A DNA stretch of 8,238 nucleotides, from the IMG/VR virus record IMGVR_UViG_2548876694_000021; one strand, written 5' to 3'. How positions within the stretch are numbered: the first letter of the stretch is position 1; each line of letters starts with the position of its first letter. Source of the DNA: a virus (taxonomy: Duplodnaviria; Heunggongvirae; Uroviricota; Caudoviricetes). Shown here piece by piece: positions 1-8,173 of this stretch. A program made the translations under genes and the position numbers. The notes beneath the pieces are model-generated. The model ran no database searches. It was not told the DNA's origin and worked only from the letters and a program-made list of their open reading frames with translations.

Positions 1-30
1 GGGCGATTAACATCGCCTTTTGCTGCTTCA
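1..30 (-). CDS. hok: Hok/Gef-family type I toxin, 5' end only (first 10 codons MKQQKAMLIA; gene runs off the left edge)
   Basis: ATG at 30..28 on the minus strand, preceded by AAGGAG (reverse complement of 41-46). The peptide start MKQQKAML matches my recollection of Hok/RelF-type toxins. Only 30 nt are visible, so this is family-level only. Confidence 0.4.
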
Positions 31-250
31 TAGCCTGCTTCTCCTTGCCTTTCGGCACGTAAGAGGCTAACCTAGATTTGCCGTTCATAGATTGAGCCTC
101 AGATTAATGTTAAGCGTCTTGCAGGACGCGTAATGTTAACTGGGGCTTTTCTCTATCTGCCGTTGGTGTTCATGCCCGAGGCAGATAGCCTCAAGCACCC
201 GCAGCTATTCTACTTAACTTCCCATTACCTCGCCAATATGAAATCGGTCA
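31..250 (-). promoter_or_regulatory. Putative hok mRNA leader (mok-like upstream start codon at 89..87; expected target region of a Sok-type antisense RNA)
   Basis: Minus-strand sequence upstream of the hok-like ATG reads ...AGCCTCTTAC...GCAAGGAGAAG...ATG, resembling hok leaders as I recall them from plasmid R1. An upstream ATG (89..87) sits in mok-like position. Extent and the antisense RNA are not resolved. Confidence 0.3.
153..188. repeat. 9-bp perfect inverted repeat (CTATCTGCC ... GGCAGATAG) with an 18-nt loop
   Basis: Read directly: 153-161 is the reverse complement of 180-188. It lies within the putative hok leader and could be one of the mRNA folding elements. Confidence 0.6.
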
Positions 251-635
251 GAAAGACAGACGTCCCATAAGGACAACAACGGAAAAAGAGATTTTGCTTG
301 ATGCTATTTACCTCTGCACCATGAAGTTGCGCCAAAATCCCAGTGGTGATAACAGGAATTTGGTTGTTGGTGATTGGGGAAAGAAGTACGTTAGACTGTG
401 GGTTAGTTCATTGACATGATAGTTACCTGCCTTCAATTTCCTAAGCAAGCGATGTAAACGATAATCAATATCAAATGTATTGACAGGTAAAATAATAACG
501 ATGTACCTTTGCTGATAACATATATCAGTCTTAAATCATAATGGAGGTAGATAAAATAACTAAACACACACAACAAATTTTTTATCAGTGACATAGCATA
601 TCTTAAGCATCCTTTAATGCTCATGGGGAGAACGC

Positions 636-1409
636 ATGACTAAACATATGGACATTCATTGTCAAACACGCATATTTAACTCAATTAACCATGACACCAA
701 ATATAAAATATGTATTTTTACTCCAAAAAACATTAAAAAAAATAATGCAACTCTTTATATACTTGATGGGAATAGTGCCAACAATTACATTTCTGATATT
801 CTGCCTGTTATTGATGCACTACCCAATCCACCAGTGTTAGTTACACTTGGTTATGAATCTTGGAATAACCTTAGCATTCATCGCCGTGCTTACGATTATA
901 CTCCTGATGGTGAAAATGCTATTGTTGATAACTCTAAACCAGCATGGATCTACTTTACTGGTGGAGGAAGCCAGTCTTTCCGAGAATTATTACTAACTCA
1001 GATCATGCCATGGGTTAGTACTATTGCTCCGAACAGTTCCAGAATCGGTATATGTGGGCACTCGCTAGGTGCTATTTTTGTGCTTGATTGCTTAAAAAAT
1101 AATTCATGCTTTAACTATTATTATATATCTGCACCATCACTTCTATGGCAGAATGAAAGAATCATCAAGATAATTAAAGATGATATATCAGAATCAAAGC
1201 ACACTAAAAGTATATGCTTGCTTAACGGAAATCTTAGCCTTGATTACTCCGCATCTTTATATCCTGAAGCCATCAAAGCGGAATCTGTTTTGAGAAATAT
1301 TTTGACAGAAAAATACAGTAATTTTTCTATTGTACAATTTCCAGAGCTCAATCATCAGGAGACTTTCTCTGCTGCACTCTGGAATAGCATTATTCATTTC
1401 AGCATATAA
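636..1409 (+). CDS. Esterase-family alpha/beta hydrolase (Fes/IroE/esterase-D-like fold, GHSLG nucleophile motif); AT-rich cargo gene
   Basis: 257-codon ORF with GGGGAG 5 nt upstream of the ATG. Contains ...LYILDGNSA... and ...IGICGHSLGAIFVLD... (a GxSxG serine-hydrolase motif), typical of the putative-esterase family. No signal peptide is evident. Composition is strongly AT-rich, unlike the phage genes to the right. Confidence 0.75.
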   Translation: MTKHMDIHCQTRIFNSINHDTKYKICIFTPKNIKKNNATLYILDGNSANNYISDILPVIDALPNPPVLVTLGYESWNNLSIHRRAYDYTPDGENAIVDNSKPAWIYFTGGGSQSFRELLLTQIMPWVSTIAPNSSRIGICGHSLGAIFVLDCLKNNSCFNYYYISAPSLLWQNERIIKIIKDDISESKHTKSICLLNGNLSLDYSASLYPEAIKAESVLRNILTEKYSNFSIVQFPELNHQETFSAALWNSIIHFSI

Positions 1410-1760
1410 CAGAAAATATGTAATCACTTTATCAATCTAGCTAACATAACTGATATCAATCCTAATGGGTCTTTGAACATATTAAAAGATAACTTCTCAT
1501 TTGTACATTGTTGTGTTCTTAGACCCATTTCAAAAATACTATTTTTTAGATACTAATAATTACATCCATTTAGCTATCTTCTAAATACTCCTCTCAGTTT
1601 CTTCATTGGAGCTGATTCAACTCCGGCAATGCATACTAGGATCATTTTATAAGCATACAAACAACATCCAGACTGTGAATTATTGCTATTCATTTTCTAT
1701 GTATCTGCTCTTTTCCCATCCACTGAAACACCAGAATCCAAAGGTTTCATGTTATTTTCA

Positions 1761-2174
1761 CTATTCCATCATTACTCCTGTGTAAAATATCAAAACTCGC
1801 TGCATCACTTCACTGTTACGGCACTCACTACAAATTATGTTCAATTGCCTGTCATAGCGGCGTATTTCTCCGTCTGGTAATGACCAGATAAGGTCAGGAT
1901 CAACCACAACCGGTTTCTTCAGTTTTGCCCTCGATAGTTTTTTGCGGGCGTTTTGCCAGTCCTTACGAGCCTGTTCAGATGGGAATAACCCGTAACCAGA
2001 GTTGTATACATCGCCACTGGCAACCAGCTCTCTGGCAAGAACGCTCATCAGATATCTTGTCGCACCTGTCTTGGCTTCCAGTTGCCGTAACGTCTCGCGC
2101 CCACTCCGGCGTACTAGCTCAACAACCTGCCCTTTAATTTTTTCCCGCTCTTCCTGTGTAAATACTTTTGCCAT
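1761..2174 (-). CDS. Hypothetical phage protein (137 aa), last gene of the leftward early operon
   Basis: The ORF track starts at a TTG (2189); the ATG at 2174 (MAKVFTQEE...) has GGAG 6 nt upstream and is the more likely start. Basic, helical-looking protein with no recognised domain. Its 3' end lies in AT-rich DNA. Confidence 0.55.
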   Translation of the reverse strand: MAKVFTQEEREKIKGQVVELVRRSGRETLRQLEAKTGATRYLMSVLARELVASGDVYNSGYGLFPSEQARKDWQNARKKLSRAKLKKPVVVDPDLIWSLPDGEIRRYDRQLNIICSECRNSEVMQRVLIFYTGVMME

Positions 2175-2189
2175 AAGCGCCTCCGGCAA

Positions 2190-2960
2190 TCACTTTTCCG
2201 ATACAACACGGCGGGAAGAATCAGTAATCTGTCGAACAATATCCCGGTGCTTGTTCAGCTCCCGCAGCGCGGCGCAGACTCGCTCCCACTTCTGAACATC
2301 ACTTTTCGCCCTGCGCAGCGCCAGGTTTGCCCTGCGAAGGGACGGAAAAATCAGCTCATCTGCTTGCGTTTCGGTAAACGATGGCAACGGCTGCACAATG
2401 TCCGCCACAGTTTCTGTTTTAATTTCTTCCTGTGTTGCGGCTTCCCGGACTGGTAACGCAGCACCTGCTGGCTGAGGAAAGGCCTTACCATCACTTTCCG
2501 TTACCAGCGCGGCTTTCGGCTCTGCTGGTAAATTATCGCCCGGCATGCAGTAACGAAATTTACCGTTCTGATTAACGCGTGCCAGCCGCCCCGTTGCGGT
2601 TACCACCGCCAGCGTGGAAGCAACCTTGCGAGTACTGACACCGAACTTACCCGCCAGTTCCTCACACGTTTTAGCCCCATCCTGACCGATAAACTCAATC
2701 ATCATGTCTGCGGTAACTTTTTGTTCGACCTCCCCGGTCAGCATATCCTGTGCTTCAGATTTTACTGGCCGCTCTTCGGTTACCCGGGATTCACCTTCGC
2801 CAGCCAGAAACCAGGTGTGACCCGTTTTATCAACAACGCCATTTTTTTTGAGTTCCCACAGTTCGTTAAGAACTTCTTCACGGCTGATATCAAGCCGCGC
2901 CGCCAGTTCAACAGAATTGGCTTTTCCCATCGCTTTCAGTGCATGCAATACAGTTTCCAT
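2190..2960 (-). CDS. Phage protein with two winged-helix-like segments (resembles DUF1627-type proteins found downstream of replication genes in lambdoid prophages)
   Basis: 256-aa ORF with GAGGT upstream of the ATG at 2960. The N-terminus ([40 protein letters not shown]) and a second segment ([31 protein letters not shown]) both look like winged-helix DNA-binding units. The family assignment is from memory. Confidence 0.65.
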
Positions 2961-2985
2961 CGAAAATTTACCTCGTCAAAAATTC

Positions 2986-3726
2986 TCACATACCCTGACG
3001 TCCAACGTTTGACCGCCAGCTATCCCAGTTAAACGTCACCCATCGACCACCGTTCATGGTCATGCGGTCCATAATCCTCTCACCAAGAAGTGTACTCATT
3101 GCGGCATGATTCAGGTTTGTTAACATCCCGACACTGCACAGTGATGCTGTCCGGCGATCAATTATCTGGTGTAATACCACCTGCTCGTTTTTCGTCTCCC
3201 GCTGAACGCCTATTTCATCCAGGACCAGCAAATCAACACTGCAAAGCTCCTGTAAAAATTTTTCCCCGGATTTGCCGTTGTCGTAGCTGTCATGCAACAC
3301 GCTCATGACATCAGACACGGTGACGATAATCACGCTGCGCCCCTTCGCCATCAGCCGGTTACCCATCGCCGCTGCAAGGTGATTTTTCCCGGTGCCGGTT
3401 TTACCGCTGAACACAAAATTCGTGCACCCGGTCATCAGTTCGTCAGCTATGGATTTGGCCTGGCTCAGCGCGTATTTTTGCCCGTCGTTCTGCACCTGAT
3501 AATTCGCAAACGAGCATTTGCTGTGCAGAGGCTGGATGCCCGAACGATTCAGGATTTTTTCCACCCGCAACTGGTGATTCTGGCGGTTAATCTCCTCGCT
3601 GCGTTTTCGTCCTTCAGCAAGTTGCCATTCCCGCCACTCCTCCACCGTCCGGTACGGTGGAACCGACGCCTGTGGTGCAAGTCTGCGAATACGTTCAAGA
3701 ACCCCGGCTGCCGCAATGTTTTTCAT
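2986..3726 (-). CDS. DnaC-like AAA+ helicase loader (IstB-like ATPase)
   Basis: Walker A (FVFSGKTGTGKNHLAAAMG) and Walker B (DLLVLDEIG) motifs. The start ATG overlaps the stop of the upstream initiator gene (ATGA at 3723-3726), indicating translational coupling. Confidence 0.88.
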   Translation of the reverse strand: MKNIAAAGVLERIRRLAPQASVPPYRTVEEWREWQLAEGRKRSEEINRQNHQLRVEKILNRSGIQPLHSKCSFANYQVQNDGQKYALSQAKSIADELMTGCTNFVFSGKTGTGKNHLAAAMGNRLMAKGRSVIIVTVSDVMSVLHDSYDNGKSGEKFLQELCSVDLLVLDEIGVQRETKNEQVVLHQIIDRRTASLCSVGMLTNLNHAAMSTLLGERIMDRMTMNGGRWVTFNWDSWRSNVGRQGM

Positions 3727-4847
3727 GCCACATCACCCCTGAATCCCGGCGGAATTTCGGTATCCGGTTCAGAAATATGATTCACACAACGCTGGTTGTT
3801 CGTGCCGCTTACCGGGAGCAACCAGGGGTTTTCAAAATTCCGGTCCGGCCCAAAAAACGTCGTCGCTCGCTGAACAAATTCCGTTCCCGCTTTCCCGGTC
3901 GCCGCCAGGTATCTCGCGTAACGCCTCACACCATCCAGCATGGTCTCTGGTGGCACCCCCTCGCGCAATCTGGCCTTCCAGGCACTGAAAGCGGATTTCT
4001 TCGGGTTTGCCCCAGCACGCAACGGGTATTCCCGCCAGACCTGTTCGAACACATCCGGATAATCCACTCGTCCCACAGACTGCCCGGTGCTTTCCGGGAC
4101 TACCCGATCGGCTTCCCGCTGAATGGCGGAATCGGCTTCAGGCTGCTGCAGTTGGTGTGATTGCTCCGACCCTGCGGTCATCACCTGCTGCACAGCGCCC
4201 GAATCGGCTTTCAGCGCATACGCTGAATCGGCTTCCGGTGTCGTGCCTGCTGGCTGACCAGGATTGACGGTCTGAACATCCCCTGCCTGGTTCGTGGTGT
4301 TTTTTTTGCCATGAACCATAGTGTTTTTGTCCTGTTCCTGTTCTTTCTCCTGCTCCTGTTCCTGTTCTTGGCTTCGAAGCCCCTTAAAAGCCCCTTCGAA
4401 GCCCCTTACCGAATTTCGGCTATTATTCCGCCTCACATCCAGATGGAAATCCGTTTTATATCTGTCGTAAAACACTGACAGAAAAGCGTTTTCAGGTAAT
4501 GATGCATACTCATTCCTGACACCTGCACAACGGTTATCGCCAGGCTTCAACGTTTCCCCAACCTGCCAGGCTGCCATTTCATGGACCCAGACCATCTCTG
4601 CATCATGGTCATAGCTACAAAAACCAGCTTCAACAGCCCTTTTAAGCCCCTTTGAAGCCCCTTCCAGACCAAGCCCGGTTTCATGAGCAAGGTATAAAAC
4701 TGGCAGGTAATACAAACCCAGCATATTTGCGTGAGGGGATGTCATCAGGTAAAAAGCAACAACTTGCGCTTCTGCACCCGCCTTTCTAAGTTCTCTCCCC
4801 GTTTCTCCCAGCCAGAATCGCGGAGAAACTTTTGCGTAATCACGCAT
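3723..4847 (-). CDS. Phage replication initiator / replisome organiser with a DnaT-like C-terminal domain
   Basis: The ORF extends to 4958, but the ATG at 4847 (MRDYAKVSPRFWLGE...) has GAGGTAG upstream and is the likelier start. The C-terminus ...VNHISEPDTEIPPGFRG resembles the C-terminus of primosomal protein DnaT as I recall it. There is a central QEQEQEQEKEQEQ linker. Iteron-like repeats lie inside the gene. Confidence 0.8.
   Translation of the reverse strand: MRDYAKVSPRFWLGETGRELRKAGAEAQVVAFYLMTSPHANMLGLYYLPVLYLAHETGLGLEGASKGLKRAVEAGFCSYDHDAEMVWVHEMAAWQVGETLKPGDNRCAGVRNEYASLPENAFLSVFYDRYKTDFHLDVRRNNSRNSVRGFEGAFKGLRSQEQEQEQEKEQEQDKNTMVHGKKNTTNQAGDVQTVNPGQPAGTTPEADSAYALKADSGAVQQVMTAGSEQSHQLQQPEADSAIQREADRVVPESTGQSVGRVDYPDVFEQVWREYPLRAGANPKKSAFSAWKARLREGVPPETMLDGVRRYARYLAATGKAGTEFVQRATTFFGPDRNFENPWLLPVSGTNNQRCVNHISEPDTEIPPGFRGDVA
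4331..4366. repeat. Imperfect hexanucleotide tandem repeat (CCTGTT)n, encoding the Q/E-repeat linker of the initiator
   Basis: Read directly: cctgttcctgttctttctcctgctcctgttcctgtt. On the coding strand it gives QEQEQEQEKEQEQ. Confidence 0.7.
4375..4407. repeat. Iteron-like direct repeats, cluster A: three copies of AAGCCCCTT at about 11-12 bp spacing
   Basis: Copies at 4376-4384, 4387-4395 and 4399-4407. The spacing is close to one helical turn. They lie inside the initiator gene next to the linker. Confidence 0.5.
4635..4680. repeat. Iteron-like direct repeats, cluster B: two exact AAGCCCCTT copies plus flanking degenerate copies
   Basis: Exact copies at 4644-4652 and 4655-4663 (11 bp apart). 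Degenerate copies at 4635-4643 (agccctttt) and 4671-4680 (aagcccggtt). Confidence 0.45.
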
Positions 4848-4925
4848 GGCTACCTCATCTGGTGCCGAACCTTCCTCCGGATATAATCTGTGGTTCCCAA
4901 TCGACAGAACCAGAGGAGGTTCGAC

Positions 4926-5381
4926 ATGTATTTTTTGAAAAGCCTTTATCAGGCTCATGTATTAAATGTTGCAGCAACAAACCGCTGGTGTAACAGCCCC
5001 GAAATGCTCCCGGATTACAGAGCCTGGCTGCGCGCCGAAACATACCTTCGTCTCGACATATTGATTAGCGAACTTCAAAAAGAGACTGCATCCATTCATA
5101 ACCTTCAGGGTATCGATGCTGTTCGCATTCTGGTATCGCGCCATAGTGCTCTCTCAATAATTGAAGTGCGTCATCTCTCTTTTTCTGAACTGATTTTCTT
5201 GCTTCAACCAGCTCTGGAATCAGCGAATATCCCACCGGAAGTGATCCAATACCCACCTCATGTTGACGAGCAGTTACAAGATGTGCCATACAACCAGCGT
5301 GCTGGATTGACTCCCTGCTCAGAGGCTGAATGGGATCACTCTCTGCTGAAGAAATACCAAGATTTGTATAATCCTCAATAA
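4926..5381 (+). CDS. Hypothetical protein (151 aa), antisense to the early operon; mutually exclusive with the minus-strand ORF 5065-5574
   Basis: AGGAGG at 4913-4918 sits 7 nt upstream of the ATG at 4926, inside an otherwise non-coding 217-nt gap of the minus-strand operon. Seven of the eight Arg codons I decoded by hand are CGT/CGC. No recognised domain. Confidence 0.42.
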   Translation: MYFLKSLYQAHVLNVAATNRWCNSPEMLPDYRAWLRAETYLRLDILISELQKETASIHNLQGIDAVRILVSRHSALSIIEVRHLSFSELIFLLQPALESANIPPEVIQYPPHVDEQLQDVPYNQRAGLTPCSEAEWDHSLLKKYQDLYNPQ

Positions 5382-5574
5382 GCCCGGCACACGCTTCTGC
5401 ATCAGCCAGCTTTATTCTGGTTTCCTTGCGCTGTTCTCTGGCTGACAAACGCCAGAGCAGCGCATTAGCTTTATGTATCAACCACTCTGCCAGCTCCACA
5501 TCAGATAAACCGCCACGCCAGATGTGCGGACTGTTTTCGTAAACGCTCAGTGTCAATTTTTTGTCATTACTCAT
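5065..5574 (-). CDS. Hypothetical protein (169 aa), co-directional with the early operon; alternative to the plus-strand ORF 4926-5381
   Basis: ATG at 5574 lies 13 nt after the YdaT-like stop, with only a weak GGGT SD. Several Arg codons decoded by hand are AGA/AGG/CGA. The protein (MSNDKKLTLSVYENSPHIWRGG...) looks globular but I do not recognise it. Confidence 0.38.
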   Translation of the reverse strand: MSNDKKLTLSVYENSPHIWRGGLSDVELAEWLIHKANALLWRLSAREQRKETRIKLADAEACAGLIEDYTNLGISSAESDPIQPLSRESIQHAGCMAHLVTARQHEVGIGSLPVGYSLIPELVEARKSVQKKRDDALQLLREHYGAIPECEQHRYPEGYEWMQSLFEVR

Positions 5575-5587
5575 ATTTATTACCCAA

Positions 5588-6013
5588 TTAATGCACAGCC
5601 AGAGTGTTTCCTGCCGGGCCACCACGATTCATCTGATCGAACAGAACGATCGCTGATGCAACGAAATCATCAATATCTTTCACCAGCCGTTCCTTCGTCT
5701 CTACCAACTCCCGAAAATAAGCGGAACTGTGGCTGCGCATTCGGGCCACCAGCGGAGGCGGCATCGCTTTTTCGATCGCTGGTAACAACGCCTGAATTTT
5801 TTTAACCGCATCAGGAGTGTCTTTCTCCACCCAGCGGAAAATTTTCTGAGTATTGCGAGCCATGGCTTCCGGATGGCTGTCGTCATACAGTTCCGGGAAC
5901 GTCATTCCCAGCTCGAAATACGCTTTGGTAATTTTCGCAGCCGGTACTTTTTCGCCGTCCGGATGCGCCCAGGCATTCATCGCCATGCGGATGTGTTCAT
6001 GCTTGATTTTCAT
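5588..6013 (-). CDS. YdaT-like protein (Rac-prophage YdaT family; proposed CII-type regulator)
   Basis: 141 aa starting MKIKHEHI and ending ...TLAVH, matching my recollection of YdaT-family proteins. GGAG lies 8 nt upstream. Its start overlaps the end of the Cro-like gene by 17 nt. Confidence 0.7.
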   Translation of the reverse strand: MKIKHEHIRMAMNAWAHPDGEKVPAAKITKAYFELGMTFPELYDDSHPEAMARNTQKIFRWVEKDTPDAVKKIQALLPAIEKAMPPPLVARMRSHSSAYFRELVETKERLVKDIDDFVASAIVLFDQMNRGGPAGNTLAVH

Positions 6014-6269
6014 GAATCAACTCCGGCGCATTTGATGTGTTAACCTTACATCCAACAGGTAAACCGTCGGTTGGGTTAGGATAAATATCTGGGCGGATTT
6101 CATGCGGGGTAACTTCCCACTTCATTAGTTGGCATAACGGAATTACCTGCTTTGGGGGAACGCCAAAGCTAAACCATTGCCAAACAGTCTGTTGAGCGAC
6201 CCCCATATAACGACCTATTTCAGCCTGAGTGTATTTCTGCCTAATTTTTTCGCGAGTGCTATCTAGCAT
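5997..6269 (-). CDS. Cro/YdaS-like HTH DNA-binding protein (first gene of the leftward early operon)
   Basis: GAGGAGG SD upstream of the ATG at 6269. HTH segment QAEIGRYMGVAQQTVWQW and a ...TPHEIRPDIYPNPTDGLP... motif typical of YdaS-like Cro proteins. It is divergent from the repressor gene. Confidence 0.8.
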   Translation of the reverse strand: MLDSTREKIRQKYTQAEIGRYMGVAQQTVWQWFSFGVPPKQVIPLCQLMKWEVTPHEIRPDIYPNPTDGLPVGCKVNTSNAPELIHENQA

Positions 6270-6297
6270 TTTGCCCTCCTCTAAAAACTATAAGCAA

Positions 6298-6341
6298 AGC
6301 CTACAATAAAAAACTGTATGCAATCAACAGTTTTTTATTGT
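6298..6341 (-). promoter_or_regulatory. OR-like operator (15-bp inverted-repeat arms, 9-bp spacer) overlapping a leftward PR-like promoter
   Basis: ACAATAAAAAACTGT (6303-6317) and ACAGTTTTTTATTGT (6327-6341) are perfect reverse complements. On the minus strand a TTGATT -35-like hexamer (6327..6322) and a TAGGCT -10-like hexamer (6303..6298) sit upstream of the cro-like gene. Confidence 0.6.
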
Positions 6342-6377
6342 GGTGCTTTTAACAGTATTTACCTGTAAAATTGAATA

Positions 6378-6779
6378 ATGATGAGCGCCCTAGAAGTATC
6401 TATGTACAGAATCAGCAAGCTTCTTCAGGAAACTGGATGGAGCCAGGCTGAGCTTGCCCGTAGAATTGGTGTGACACAACAAACTGTTCAACAATGGGTC
6501 AGCGGTAAGGCTACACCTAAAGCCTCAAGTTTGGATAAACTGGTTGAGGTTTCAGGGCATCCATTGCATTGGTTTTTATTGCCTCCTGAAGAGTGTGAGC
6601 AAATTTTCACCCCTGACACGATGAAAATTGGTCCTCGCCAACGCGAACTGCTCCAAGCTTTTAGTGCGTTTCCTGAGGAAGACCAAGAAAAAATGCTTCA
6701 AGAAATCAAAGACAAGAAAAAATCAATGGAAGAAACCATTGCTAGGTGGCTGGCGGCACAAAAAAGCCGCCGGGCGTGA
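6378..6779 (+). CDS. Prophage repressor, XRE/DicA-type HTH; PaaR-like first gene of a three-gene repressor-antitoxin-toxin operon
   Basis: HTH segment SQAELARRIGVTQQTVQQWVSGK. No LexA-type S24 peptidase domain. The C-terminal part (GPRQRELLQAFSAFPEEDQEKM) resembles DicA/RacR-type repressors as I recall them. It is divergent from the cro-like gene. Confidence 0.85.
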   Translation: MMSALEVSMYRISKLLQETGWSQAELARRIGVTQQTVQQWVSGKATPKASSLDKLVEVSGHPLHWFLLPPEECEQIFTPDTMKIGPRQRELLQAFSAFPEEDQEKMLQEIKDKKKSMEETIARWLAAQKSRRA

Positions 6780-6806
6780 CCACAGTACAAGAAGAGGAGT
6801 TATGCC

Positions 6807-6998
6807 ATGGGTACAGCCCTTTCTCCGATAGTTTCAGAATTCGAAACTACCGAACAAGAAAACAGTTACAACGAATGGTTGCGCACTAAAGTAACGTCAA
6901 GCCTTGCAGACACTCGCCCCGCAATTCCACATGACGAGGTAATGGCTGAAATGGAAAATCTTATTGCTCAAATTGCTGTAACTAACAAGAGCGAGTAA
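6807..6998 (+). CDS. paaA: Type II antitoxin partner of ParE (PaaA-like, 63 aa)
   Basis: GAGGAG lies 7 nt upstream of the ATG. Small acidic protein (…SEFETTEQENSYNEWLRTKV…HDEVMAEMENLIAQI). Its stop overlaps the toxin start (TAATG at 6996-7000). It resembles PaaA2 of E. coli O157 prophages as I recall it. Confidence 0.72.
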   Translation: MGTALSPIVSEFETTEQENSYNEWLRTKVTSSLADTRPAIPHDEVMAEMENLIAQIAVTNKSE

Positions 6999-7285
6999 TG
7001 TTACCCATTTTATGGCTACCGTCTGCTCGCGATGATTTGCGCCAGATCATAACTTACATCGCCAAGGAGAACCCACCGGCAGCACGTAGACTAAAAATAC
7101 GCATTGAAACATCGGTATTACCTCTATCTGAGCATCCGTACTTATATCCACCAAGCGAACGGGTTTCTGGATTGAGAGAGATCGTGACCCACCCTAACTA
7201 CATAATCCTGTACAGAGTAGCTGCTTCAAGCATTGAGATTGTAAGCGTGACACATTCTCGGCGACAATTTCCCTTCTCTATCTGA
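6998..7285 (+). CDS. parE: ParE/RelE-superfamily type II toxin (ParE-like, 95 aa)
   Basis: The MLPILWLPSARDDLRQI...EHPYLYPPSERVSGLREIVTHPNYIILYRVAASSIEIVSVTHSRRQF pattern is characteristic of ParE toxins. It is translationally coupled to the antitoxin gene. Confidence 0.85.
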   Translation: MLPILWLPSARDDLRQIITYIAKENPPAARRLKIRIETSVLPLSEHPYLYPPSERVSGLREIVTHPNYIILYRVAASSIEIVSVTHSRRQFPFSI

Positions 7286-7303
7286 GTTGAACAATTTTCA
7301 TAC

Positions 7304-7326
7304 TCCCTCTTTCGAGGGATTTTTTT
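7304..7326 (+). terminator. Putative Rho-independent terminator after the toxin gene
   Basis: Stem TCCCTC (7304-7309) / GAGGGA (7314-7319) with a 4-nt loop, followed by a T-run (7320-7326). Confidence 0.5.
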
Positions 7327-7336
7327 GCCCAAAACA

Positions 7337-7380
7337 ACAATTAAAAACTGTTGACACAAAACAGTTTTTAATTGTAGATT
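7337..7380 (+). promoter_or_regulatory. OL-like operator (15-bp arms, 9-bp spacer) overlapping a rightward PL-like promoter
   Basis: ACAATTAAAAACTGT (7337-7351) and ACAGTTTTTAATTGT (7361-7375) are perfect reverse complements and differ from the OR-like site by one base per arm. A consensus -35 TTGACA (7351-7356) is followed 18 nt later by TAGATT (7375-7380). Confidence 0.6.
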
Positions 7381-7561
7381 ACATACACCAACCACCCACC
7401 CCGCCCCACAGAACGCCGGGCAATACTTCGAGTTACCAGGCAGTGGTCAGGGGGTAAGTAGCCAGCCCGAGGCGTATGAACATGACGGCAGGGTTCAACT
7501 TTAATAACTATGCAGCAGGTTTTTGTTCCGCTACCCGGCGTTAAGGGGAAATGAGGTCAAC

Positions 7562-7717
7562 ATGGATACTATCGATCTTGGCAACAACGAATCTCTGGTG
7601 TACGGCGTGTTTCCCAACCAGGACGGTACATTCACCGCGATGACGTATACCAAAAGCAAAACGTTTAAAACCGAAAATGGTGCCCGTCGCTGGCTGGAAA
7701 GAAACTCAGGTGAGTGA
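7562..7717 (+). CDS. Small early protein (51 aa), YdfA-like (DUF1391) by recollection
   Basis: GAGG lies 5 nt upstream of the ATG at 7562; the ORF track begins at an upstream TTG (7523). Protein MDTIDLGNNESLVYGVFPNQDGTFTAMTYTK... Confidence 0.6.
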   Translation: MDTIDLGNNESLVYGVFPNQDGTFTAMTYTKSKTFKTENGARRWLERNSGE

Positions 7718-7718
7718 T

Positions 7719-7847
7719 ATGGATTTCGACACAATCATGGAAAAGGCTTACGAAGAATACTTCGAAGGCCTTGCCGAAGGCGAGGAAGCTCTCAGCTTCA
7801 GTGAGTTTAAACAGGCGCTTTCCAGTTCGGCAAAATCTAACGACTAA
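7719..7847 (+). CDS. Small acidic protein (42 aa), YdfB-like by recollection; not in the supplied ORF track
   Basis: ATG at 7719 lies 1 nt after the preceding stop, with GGTGAG upstream. Translates to MDFDTIMEKAYEEYFEGLAEGEEALSFSEFKQALSSSAKSND with stop at 7845-7847. Called by hand. Confidence 0.5.
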   Translation: MDFDTIMEKAYEEYFEGLAEGEEALSFSEFKQALSSSAKSND

Positions 7848-7858
7848 CGGAGTTAAAG

Positions 7859-8173
7859 ATGGAATTTAAAGATTTACTAAAAGAAATCCAGGAAATTGCA
7901 GCACATGCACTTCACCAACGTCTGAACGAAGTTGAATTAGAATCTGCAACGAAGAAATACATTGATAATATGGCTCGTAATGTGCGCGATGCGTTTACCG
8001 GATTGTACTCTGTTTCGGTAACAAACAACCAGAATACTGAAGAAACTGCAAAGCGGATTGCCTCGGTGATGGGTTTTCATGTCGAGGAAAAGTATTCAAA
8101 AAAAGAATTCTGGAAAACTACAAAAAAATTGCAGAGCGAGAACTGTCATCTCCTGCGGCAATCGCTGAGGTAG
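7859..8173 (+). CDS. Hypothetical protein (104 aa)
   Basis: GGAG lies 6 nt upstream of the ATG. No recognised domain. Somewhat AT-richer than neighbouring genes. Confidence 0.6.
   Translation: MEFKDLLKEIQEIAAHALHQRLNEVELESATKKYIDNMARNVRDAFTGLYSVSVTNNQNTEETAKRIASVMGFHVEEKYSKKEFWKTTKKLQSENCHLLRQSLR

Follow-up and report, generated by a model that had tools for sequence, protein, structure and literature searches.

Escherichia coli O157:H7 carries two paralogous three-component toxin-antitoxin (TA) systems that do not neutralise each other's toxins (PMC4803016), and toxicity, neutralisation and plasmid stabilisation have been described for them (Hallez 2010, through secondary sources; Jurenas 2021; PMC8630535, PMC4803016). 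One of the two, paaR2-paaA2-parE2, resides in prophage CP-933P (Sp12 in strain Sakai). Its regulator PaaR2 is a CI analogue, and its TA genes are embedded in the phage immunity region, are addictive, and have been proposed to have inserted there (Jurenas 2021, PMC8630535). PaaR2 represses the promoters PR and PL (PMC8630535), and CI-like regulation, the OR/OL/PL arrangement, bistability and addiction, measured as plasmid stabilisation, have been established by experiment (PMC8630535). It has also been stated for this locus that the TA genes replace rexA and rexB (Prolic-Kalinsek 2023, PMC9986795). The family, its layout, the CI-analogue regulator, the operator and promoter architecture, the equivalence to the rexAB slot, addiction and the insertion hypothesis are thus already published, the points on the regulator and the rexAB slot in 2021-2023. 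A homologue of paaR2-paaA2-parE2 is carried by prophage CP-933M of strain EDL933 (Jurenas 2021, PMC8630535), which corresponds to Sp4 of strain Sakai (PMC2884950). Here we describe a repressor-antitoxin-toxin operon at positions 6378-7285 of an 8,238-nucleotide stretch of viral DNA (Caudoviricetes; IMG/VR record IMGVR_UViG_2548876694_000021), the whole of which is called the window below. An earlier annotation made without database searches (the sequence-only reading) had singled out this operon as a ParE-family TA pair tied to a prophage repressor.

The region is very probably the operon that maintains lysogeny in a lambdoid prophage of the Sp4/CP-933M immunity type, with a paaR-paaA-parE module that is a paralogue of paaR2-paaA2-parE2. 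Presumably it is the paaR1-paaA1-parE1 locus of Hallez 2010, a name that we take from secondary sources. The closest match to the window as a whole is E. coli O121 strain RM8352, which is 99.99% identical over positions 1-8166; over the same positions, prophage Sp4 of O157:H7 Sakai shows 98.97% DNA identity. From 5588 to 7900 (2.3 kb) the window is 100% identical to DNA of E. coli O121 and of further Shiga-toxin-producing strains. The five proteins of the immunity region agree in every residue (100%) with those of Sakai ECs_1067-ECs_1071, the repressor being ECs_1069, the antitoxin ECs_1068 and the toxin ECs_1067. The resemblance to the O157:H7 modules that had been suspected from the layout therefore proves to be identity of the proteins with the Sp4/CP-933M copy, which has the same gene order and prophage context and differs in nothing of substance. 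In Sakai, ECs_1069 bears the annotation "phage repressor protein" and ECs_1067 that of a "plasmid stabilization system protein", and RefSeq annotates the same three genes in the identical DNA of RM8352.

The operon consists of three co-oriented open reading frames (ORFs) on the plus strand, as given by a program-made ORF list (Table 1). The antitoxin stop codon (TAA, 6996-6998) and the toxin start codon (ATG, 6998-7000) share one nucleotide in the sequence TAATG (6996-7000), whereas a 1-nt gap separates them in Sp12. The antitoxin ATG follows the repressor stop after a 27-nt gap, a GAGGAG Shine-Dalgarno sequence is located 8 nt upstream of the antitoxin gene, and a terminator scan found no terminator-like site on the plus strand between the three genes. 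The ORFs, the overlap and the flanking palindromes all agree with the tight operon between two operators that the sequence-only reading had proposed.

The antitoxin scores 68.3 bits with Pfam PaaA2 (cut-off 27) and matches NCBIfam NF050103 (E = 1.6e-26) and the solved chain of PaaA2 (PDB 3zbe_A, E = 1.4e-20). PaaA2 is its sole Pfam domain, and no DNA-binding domain was detected. The toxin scores 63.5 bits with Pfam ParE_toxin (cut-off 23) and aligns with the solved ParE2 chain (PDB 5cw7_B) over residues 1-93 (E = 3e-36). Identity to the Sp12 proteins is 62-70% for PaaA, 65-67% for ParE and 86% for YdaT; the corresponding values are 34% for the repressor and 17% for YdaS. The assignment of the 95-aa and 63-aa proteins to the ParE and PaaA families, which had been made without a homology search, is thus upheld by Pfam and PDB. 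A comparison of all three proteins with PaaR2, PaaA2 and ParE2, as the earlier annotation had recommended, matches the toxin and the antitoxin, while the repressor aligns well only over its C-terminal ~50 aa. Given the closeness to solved chains and the Pfam scores for PaaA2, ParE_toxin and HTH_3, the three-gene observation is not a product of chance. A ParE-like toxin, a PaaA-type antitoxin and a separate helix-turn-helix (HTH) regulator encoded first in the operon together give, as judged from sequence, the layout of a PaaR-PaaA-ParE three-component type II TA system.

The regulator itself contains an N-terminal HTH domain (Pfam HTH_3, E = 2.3e-12) and a weak match to Phage_CI_repr (E = 7.4e-5). 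With the DicA model (NCBIfam NF007257) it scores 51.5 bits, under the 101-bit cut-off, and it is 28% identical to DicA of E. coli K-12; by these scores it is a DicA-like protein and not DicA. Pfam and NCBIfam searches detected no S24 peptidase domain, the RecA-stimulated self-cleaving domain, in its 133 aa. PaaR2 also lacks a peptidase domain (PMC8630535). The window repressor, presumably CI-like in action, stands outside the CI/LexA family.

The claim that this regulator is the phage immunity repressor itself finds support in the operators. The repressor gene faces a divergent ydaS-ydaT pair across one 39-bp palindrome (OR, ACAATAAAAAACTGT-N9-ACAGTTTTTTATTGT), and a second palindrome lies over PL (OL); the two 39-nt copies are 79% identical. 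With at most one mismatch allowed, the window has 9 occurrences of the half-site AAAAACTGT where 3.6 would be expected, and the two operator regions account for six of the nine. Perfect half-sites are found in OL at 7343-7351 and 7361-7369, and additional half-sites with one mismatch flank OR at 6283-6291 and 6352-6360. The repressor is likely to bind to these palindromes. The predicted PR sits relative to its palindrome as the mirror image of PL. No Shine-Dalgarno sequence precedes the repressor ATG at 6378, and the spacing of the predicted PRM -10 element to this ATG recurs in CP-933P (GATAAT-6 nt-ATG), where the leaderless start of paaR2 was mapped with the 5' RACE technique (PMC8630535). 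By analogy, the repressor mRNA of the window would also be leaderless, starting from the predicted PRM.

The divergent genes complete the picture. The YdaS-like protein (ECs_1070) is 17-22% identical to CP-933P YdaS and should accordingly have a different, immunity-specific specificity, and the YdaT-like protein (ECs_1071) is close to that of Sp12/CP-933P. The site bound by YdaT has been defined as 5'-TTGATTN6AATCAA-3' (PMC9986795), and an exact copy, the single match in the window against 0.05 expected, is found in the overlap of ydaS and ydaT; a role as YdaT operator is proposed from this match and its position. Divergent repressor and cro-like genes with a common operator, a related operator over PL, and a CII analogue with its site mark the predicted organisation as that of a lambdoid immunity region. 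Beyond it the context is also lambdoid, according to the annotation of the identical O121 DNA: O-like and DnaC-like replication genes follow ydaT, and on the other side, past the toxin gene, lie ydfA, ydfB, dicB and genes for an exonuclease, an excisionase and an integrase.

Table 1. Features of the immunity region and its repressor-TA operon (positions in the window).
Feature	Position	Strand	Description
ydaT-like gene (CII analogue)	5588-6013	-	141 aa; Pfam YdaT_toxin E = 1.2e-9
ydaS-like gene (Cro analogue)	5997-6269	-	90 aa; Pfam YdaS_toxin E = 8e-10
Predicted YdaT operator (OM-like)	6003-6020		TTGATTTTCATGAATCAA; in the ydaS/ydaT overlap, where PRE would be
Predicted PR driving ydaS-ydaT	6298-6327	-	-35 TTGATT (6327-6322), 18-nt spacer, -10 TAGGCT (6303-6298); assigned by eye
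OR, 39-bp palindrome	6303-6341		ACAATAAAAAACTGT-N9-ACAGTTTTTTATTGT; inverted repeat, 15-nt arms 100% complementary, 9-nt spacer
Predicted PRM -10	6366-6371	+	TAAAAT; 6-nt spacing to the repressor ATG
paaR (type 1) repressor	6378-6779	+	133 aa; DicA/CI-like, N-terminal HTH and conserved C-terminal PaaR domain
paaA (type 1) antitoxin	6807-6998	+	63 aa; Pfam PaaA2 E = 5.6e-19
parE (type 1) toxin	6998-7285	+	95 aa; Pfam ParE_toxin E = 2.9e-17
Intrinsic terminator of the repressor-TA operon	7304-7326	+	Stem TCCCTC/GAGGGA, 4-nt loop, then T7
OL, second operator palindrome copy	7337-7375		Found by repeat search (direct and inverted repeats)
PL-like promoter driving ydfA-ydfB-...-dicB	7351-7380	+	TTGACA-18 nt-TAGATT inside OL; consensus scan 10/12
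Conserved PL leader common to heteroimmune relatives, at the right-hand border of the immunity cassette	7392-7561	+	

From this anatomy and the experiments on PaaR2, a mechanism can be proposed. In the lysogen, the repressor would bind OR and OL and keep both PR, with the cro-like, cII-like and replication genes, and PL, with ydfA to dicB, switched off. A weak PRM would give rise to a leaderless mRNA running through paaR, paaA and parE to the terminator, co-transcription being known from the paralogue. If the repressor mRNA continues through paaA-parE in this way, the TA pair would be made whenever the prophage is lysogenic. YdaT, upon binding to its site, would activate a PRE-like promoter that reads back into the operon. 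PaaA is expected to be a short, disordered protein that wraps around and neutralises the ParE-fold toxin, as in the structures of PaaA2-ParE2, to which both proteins are homologous here. With PaaA labile to proteases and ParE stable, the toxin would be set free once the immunity region is lost or replaced. As in the paralogue, the freed toxin could then damage DNA and induce the SOS response, probably via a topoisomerase, and the module could act as an addiction device that stabilises the immunity region of the prophage.

The module can be compared with several named systems. With paaR2-paaA2-parE2 (CP-933P/Sp12; PDB 5CW7, 3ZBE) it shares the three-gene order, the position between OR and OL/PL, the divergent ydaS-ydaT pair and the same YdaT site. 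DNA homology between the window and Sp12 begins at 6714, inside the C-terminal domain of the repressor, and extends through the TA genes to 7551 (69.5%). The operators, however, are built from different units, AAAAACTGT-type half-sites in a 39-bp palindrome here and GTTTAGTAA-type 18-bp repeats in CP-933P. Unrelated repressor HTH domains, unrelated Cro-like proteins and different operators make the two prophages heteroimmune, with TA pairs that have diverged from each other. The likeness to cI-rexA-rexB of phage lambda is one of arrangement: accessory genes that follow the repressor gene within the OR-OL interval, a leaderless PRM transcript in lysogens, and a terminator before OL/PL. On the other hand, RexAB has no sequence relation to PaaA-ParE and is an exclusion or abortive-infection system rather than a type II TA, addictive in the paralogue, and lambda CI contains the S24 peptidase domain that the window repressor lacks. 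The Qin prophage of E. coli K-12 (dicC-dicA/ydfA-dicB) has a similar layout and a DicA-like repressor whose C-terminal domain is related, and its ydfA-ydfB operon is 97% identical to the window from position 7525. It has no TA between dicA and ydfA; as had been stated in the sequence-only reading, ydfA (1648508) comes directly after dicA (1647934-1648341). Classical parDE systems (RK2, Caulobacter, Vibrio) share with the module a toxin fold of the ParE/RelE superfamily and a labile proteic antitoxin encoded upstream. In contrast to PaaA, which leaves regulation to a separate repressor, ParD has its own ribbon-helix-helix DNA-binding domain and autoregulates.

The same prophage also holds a type I TA locus a few kb from the type II pair. 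On the minus strand at 26-200, the window scores 107 bits with the Rfam model of the sok antitoxin RNA (RF01794), for which the gathering score is 59, and hokD is annotated beside it in the identical O121 DNA.

The rexAB-like position, after the repressor gene and before OL and in the same orientation as the repressor, leads to an alternative in which the TA pair is primarily an anti-phage system, a functional analogue of RexAB acting through abortive infection or superinfection exclusion, and not an addiction module. Defence against phages is a role of many accessory genes of prophages and of some type II TAs, and expression of the pair would be tied to lysogeny. We nevertheless regard this alternative as unlikely. 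PaaA and ParE match no PADLOC defence model (the same search with the repressor returned generic HTH matches only), neither protein is related in sequence to RexA or RexB, and the words "abortive" and "superinfection" do not occur in the study of the paralogue, which did find plasmid stabilisation (PMC8630535).

It is far less probable that PaaR is only the detached DNA-binding half of a split antitoxin, regulating its own TA operon rather than phage immunity. This view has been considered in the literature (PMC8630535), and it would account for the missing DNA-binding domain of PaaA and for the need of related beta-proteobacterial PaaA-ParE pairs for some regulator. However, the palindrome is found at two places, on the PL-like promoter of the ydfA-dicB operon, at a distance of 1 kb, and on the predicted PR ahead of the cro/cII-like genes; the repressor gene occupies the dicA/cI position, and repression of PR and PL by PaaR2 has been demonstrated (PMC8630535). 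Moreover, the beta-proteobacterial pairs have no PaaR homologue immediately upstream, and the same TA family follows repressors whose HTH domains are of three kinds. That the toxin is instead a RelE-type ribosome-dependent mRNA interferase has similarly little to commend it, since the NCBIfam RelE_StbE match (28.4 bits, just over the 27.9 cut-off) and the RefSeq name "RelB family" for the antitoxin in O121 DNA are set against the ParE_toxin score and the identity to ParE2 given above, and ParE2 colocalises with the nucleoid and induces SOS (Hallez 2010 as cited in PMC8630535).

Several points weigh against the reading of the locus as an addictive module within a lysogenic-maintenance operon. 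Toxicity, neutralisation and repression by the window copy are carried over from the paralogue and would hold as far as that analogy does. The N-terminal domain of the repressor and the Cro-like protein are unrelated to those of CP-933P (the overall identities of 34% and 17% given above), and each site in the window consists of one 39-bp palindrome where CP-933P has four 18-bp repeats. Since the operator architecture differs, the regulatory details may differ as well. A consensus promoter scan of the window called neither PR nor PRM, and the -35 element of PRM is poor; both promoters are assigned because of the geometry that they share with PL and with the mapped promoters of CP-933P. For the paralogue itself, the molecular target of ParE2 is unproven (PMC8630535), and no ParE2 activity was detected in either transcriptional state (Jurenas 2021, PMC8630535).

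At least 80% of the 2.3 kb from 5588 to 7900 is present in 494 of 5426 complete E. coli genomes. The segment with the repressor gene and OR occurs in 510 of them (508 at ≥95% identity), and the repressor-antitoxin junction is intact in 518 (508 at ≥90% identity). The Sp4-type copy is therefore found in ~9% of complete E. coli genomes, and the listed strains are mostly Shiga-toxin producers (O157:H7, O121, O103, O45). No TA-less allele of the window repressor type was found among the 5426 genomes; the junction is retained in all of the ~508 that have this type. Phages Tritos and vB_EcoS-689R5 and prophage Sp11 lack the TA pair and have other repressors. The flanks that they share with the window show 85-91% DNA identity in ydaT and 93-98% in the PL leader and ydfA. 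The PL leader is likewise 93-98% identical among the heteroimmune relatives Tritos, 689R5, Sp11 and Sp12, though the adjacent operators differ completely. The possibility that this leader (7387-7561) is a structured RNA was considered and rejected: it folds no better than shuffled sequences (z = 0.87), and it has no Rfam match at E ≤ 1.

Homology to the TA-less relatives ends at 6019-6024 and resumes at 7392-7397, which indicates that the whole immunity cassette has been replaced and not only the ~0.5-kb TA. The proposal of the sequence-only reading that the TA pair is an insertion therefore stands only loosely. A recent simple insertion can be rejected, as no clean empty site was found and Tritos, 689R5, Sp11 and Qin differ from the window over 6025-7391. 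An ancient acquisition or a cassette exchange fits better. Related PaaA-ParE pairs occur in beta-proteobacterial genomes and metagenome-assembled genomes (MAGs) and in one MAG titled Blastopirellula marina, a planctomycete (identity to the window proteins 57-64% for the antitoxin and 47-60% for the toxin). None of these pairs has a PaaR homologue immediately upstream, that is, they are stand-alone two-gene modules. The TA pair is thus older and more widespread than its tie to prophage repressors, and these data fit a scenario in which a phage immunity operon captured a two-gene cassette long ago, as proposed by Jurenas 2021 (PMC8630535).

Among phages, a megablast of the locus against 50,697 records matched only the flanks (ydaT, ydfA) and recovered no phage with the TA type of the window. 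A protein search of phages found only Escherichia phage Evi (LR597642.1), which carries the type-2 toxin; its paaR2-paaA2-parE2 genes (2916-3779 of the locus compared) are 98-100% identical to those of Sakai Sp12, and its parE2 ORF (3501-3779 of that locus) was left unannotated in the record.

Within E. coli, the TA family is found behind at least three repressor DNA-binding domains: that of the window, that of PaaR2 and that of a 166-aa repressor, each joined to the PaaR C-terminal tail. The 166-aa repressor is present in strain FDAARGOS_401 (NZ_CP023531.1; 1683-2682 of the locus compared); its N-terminal HTH is a different one, while its C-terminal ~45 aa are again those of PaaR. With its own operators (ATAGCA...TGCTAT-like), and with PaaA and ParE 84% and 88% identical to those of the window, this strain represents a third immunity type. 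Strain OkiPb01712 (NZ_AP042676.1; 2108-3018 of the locus compared) has ydaS, OR, repressor (91%) and OL of the window type but a type-2 TA pair (90% and 92% to Sp12). Its sequence switches to type 2 near window position 6800 and back near 7240, an apparent cassette exchange between heteroimmune prophage regions. In strains N17 and Nord58, the repressor is 98% identical to that of the window and the TA proteins only 90% and 85%. The retention of the repressor-antitoxin junction, the variety of repressors, the exchange in OkiPb01712, the TA divergence in N17 and Nord58 and the parE2 gene of Evi are small additions that we did not find in the literature on the sister locus.

These observations invite a more speculative view, to which we give little weight. 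The paaA-parE pair could be a portable guard of the immunity region that travels with the PaaR C-terminal domain, recombines between heteroimmune prophages and diversifies into types that do not cross-neutralise. A competing phage that replaced the immunity region would then be penalised by the type of pair residing there, or the pair might additionally provide Rex-like abortive infection. Neither cassette exchange nor a defence role is described in the literature found on paaR-paaA-parE loci.

Two further genes of the window lie on the strand opposite to their surroundings. A 257-aa alpha/beta hydrolase gene (RefSeq WP_000160651.1; 636-1409, plus strand) is placed between the hok/sok region and DUF977, opposite to the surrounding early-right genes, and looks like a moron-type cargo gene. 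A gene for an "ECs1072 family phage-associated protein" (4926-5381, plus strand), placed between the O-like gene and ydaT, is oriented antisense to the replication operon; the gene overlaps a minus-strand ORF of 186 aa (5065-5625) that has no Pfam match.

The sister locus has already been dissected both genetically and structurally, and the window locus, a textbook-adjacent TA in a prophage lysogeny operon, is of minor importance as a discovery. What value remains lies in comparison, as the Sp4-type copy differs from the CP-933P copy in its repressor HTH and its Cro-like protein and has a simpler operator. It is thus a natural second system in which to ask whether such TAs guard immunity regions against replacement, and whether TA and immunity types can re-assort.

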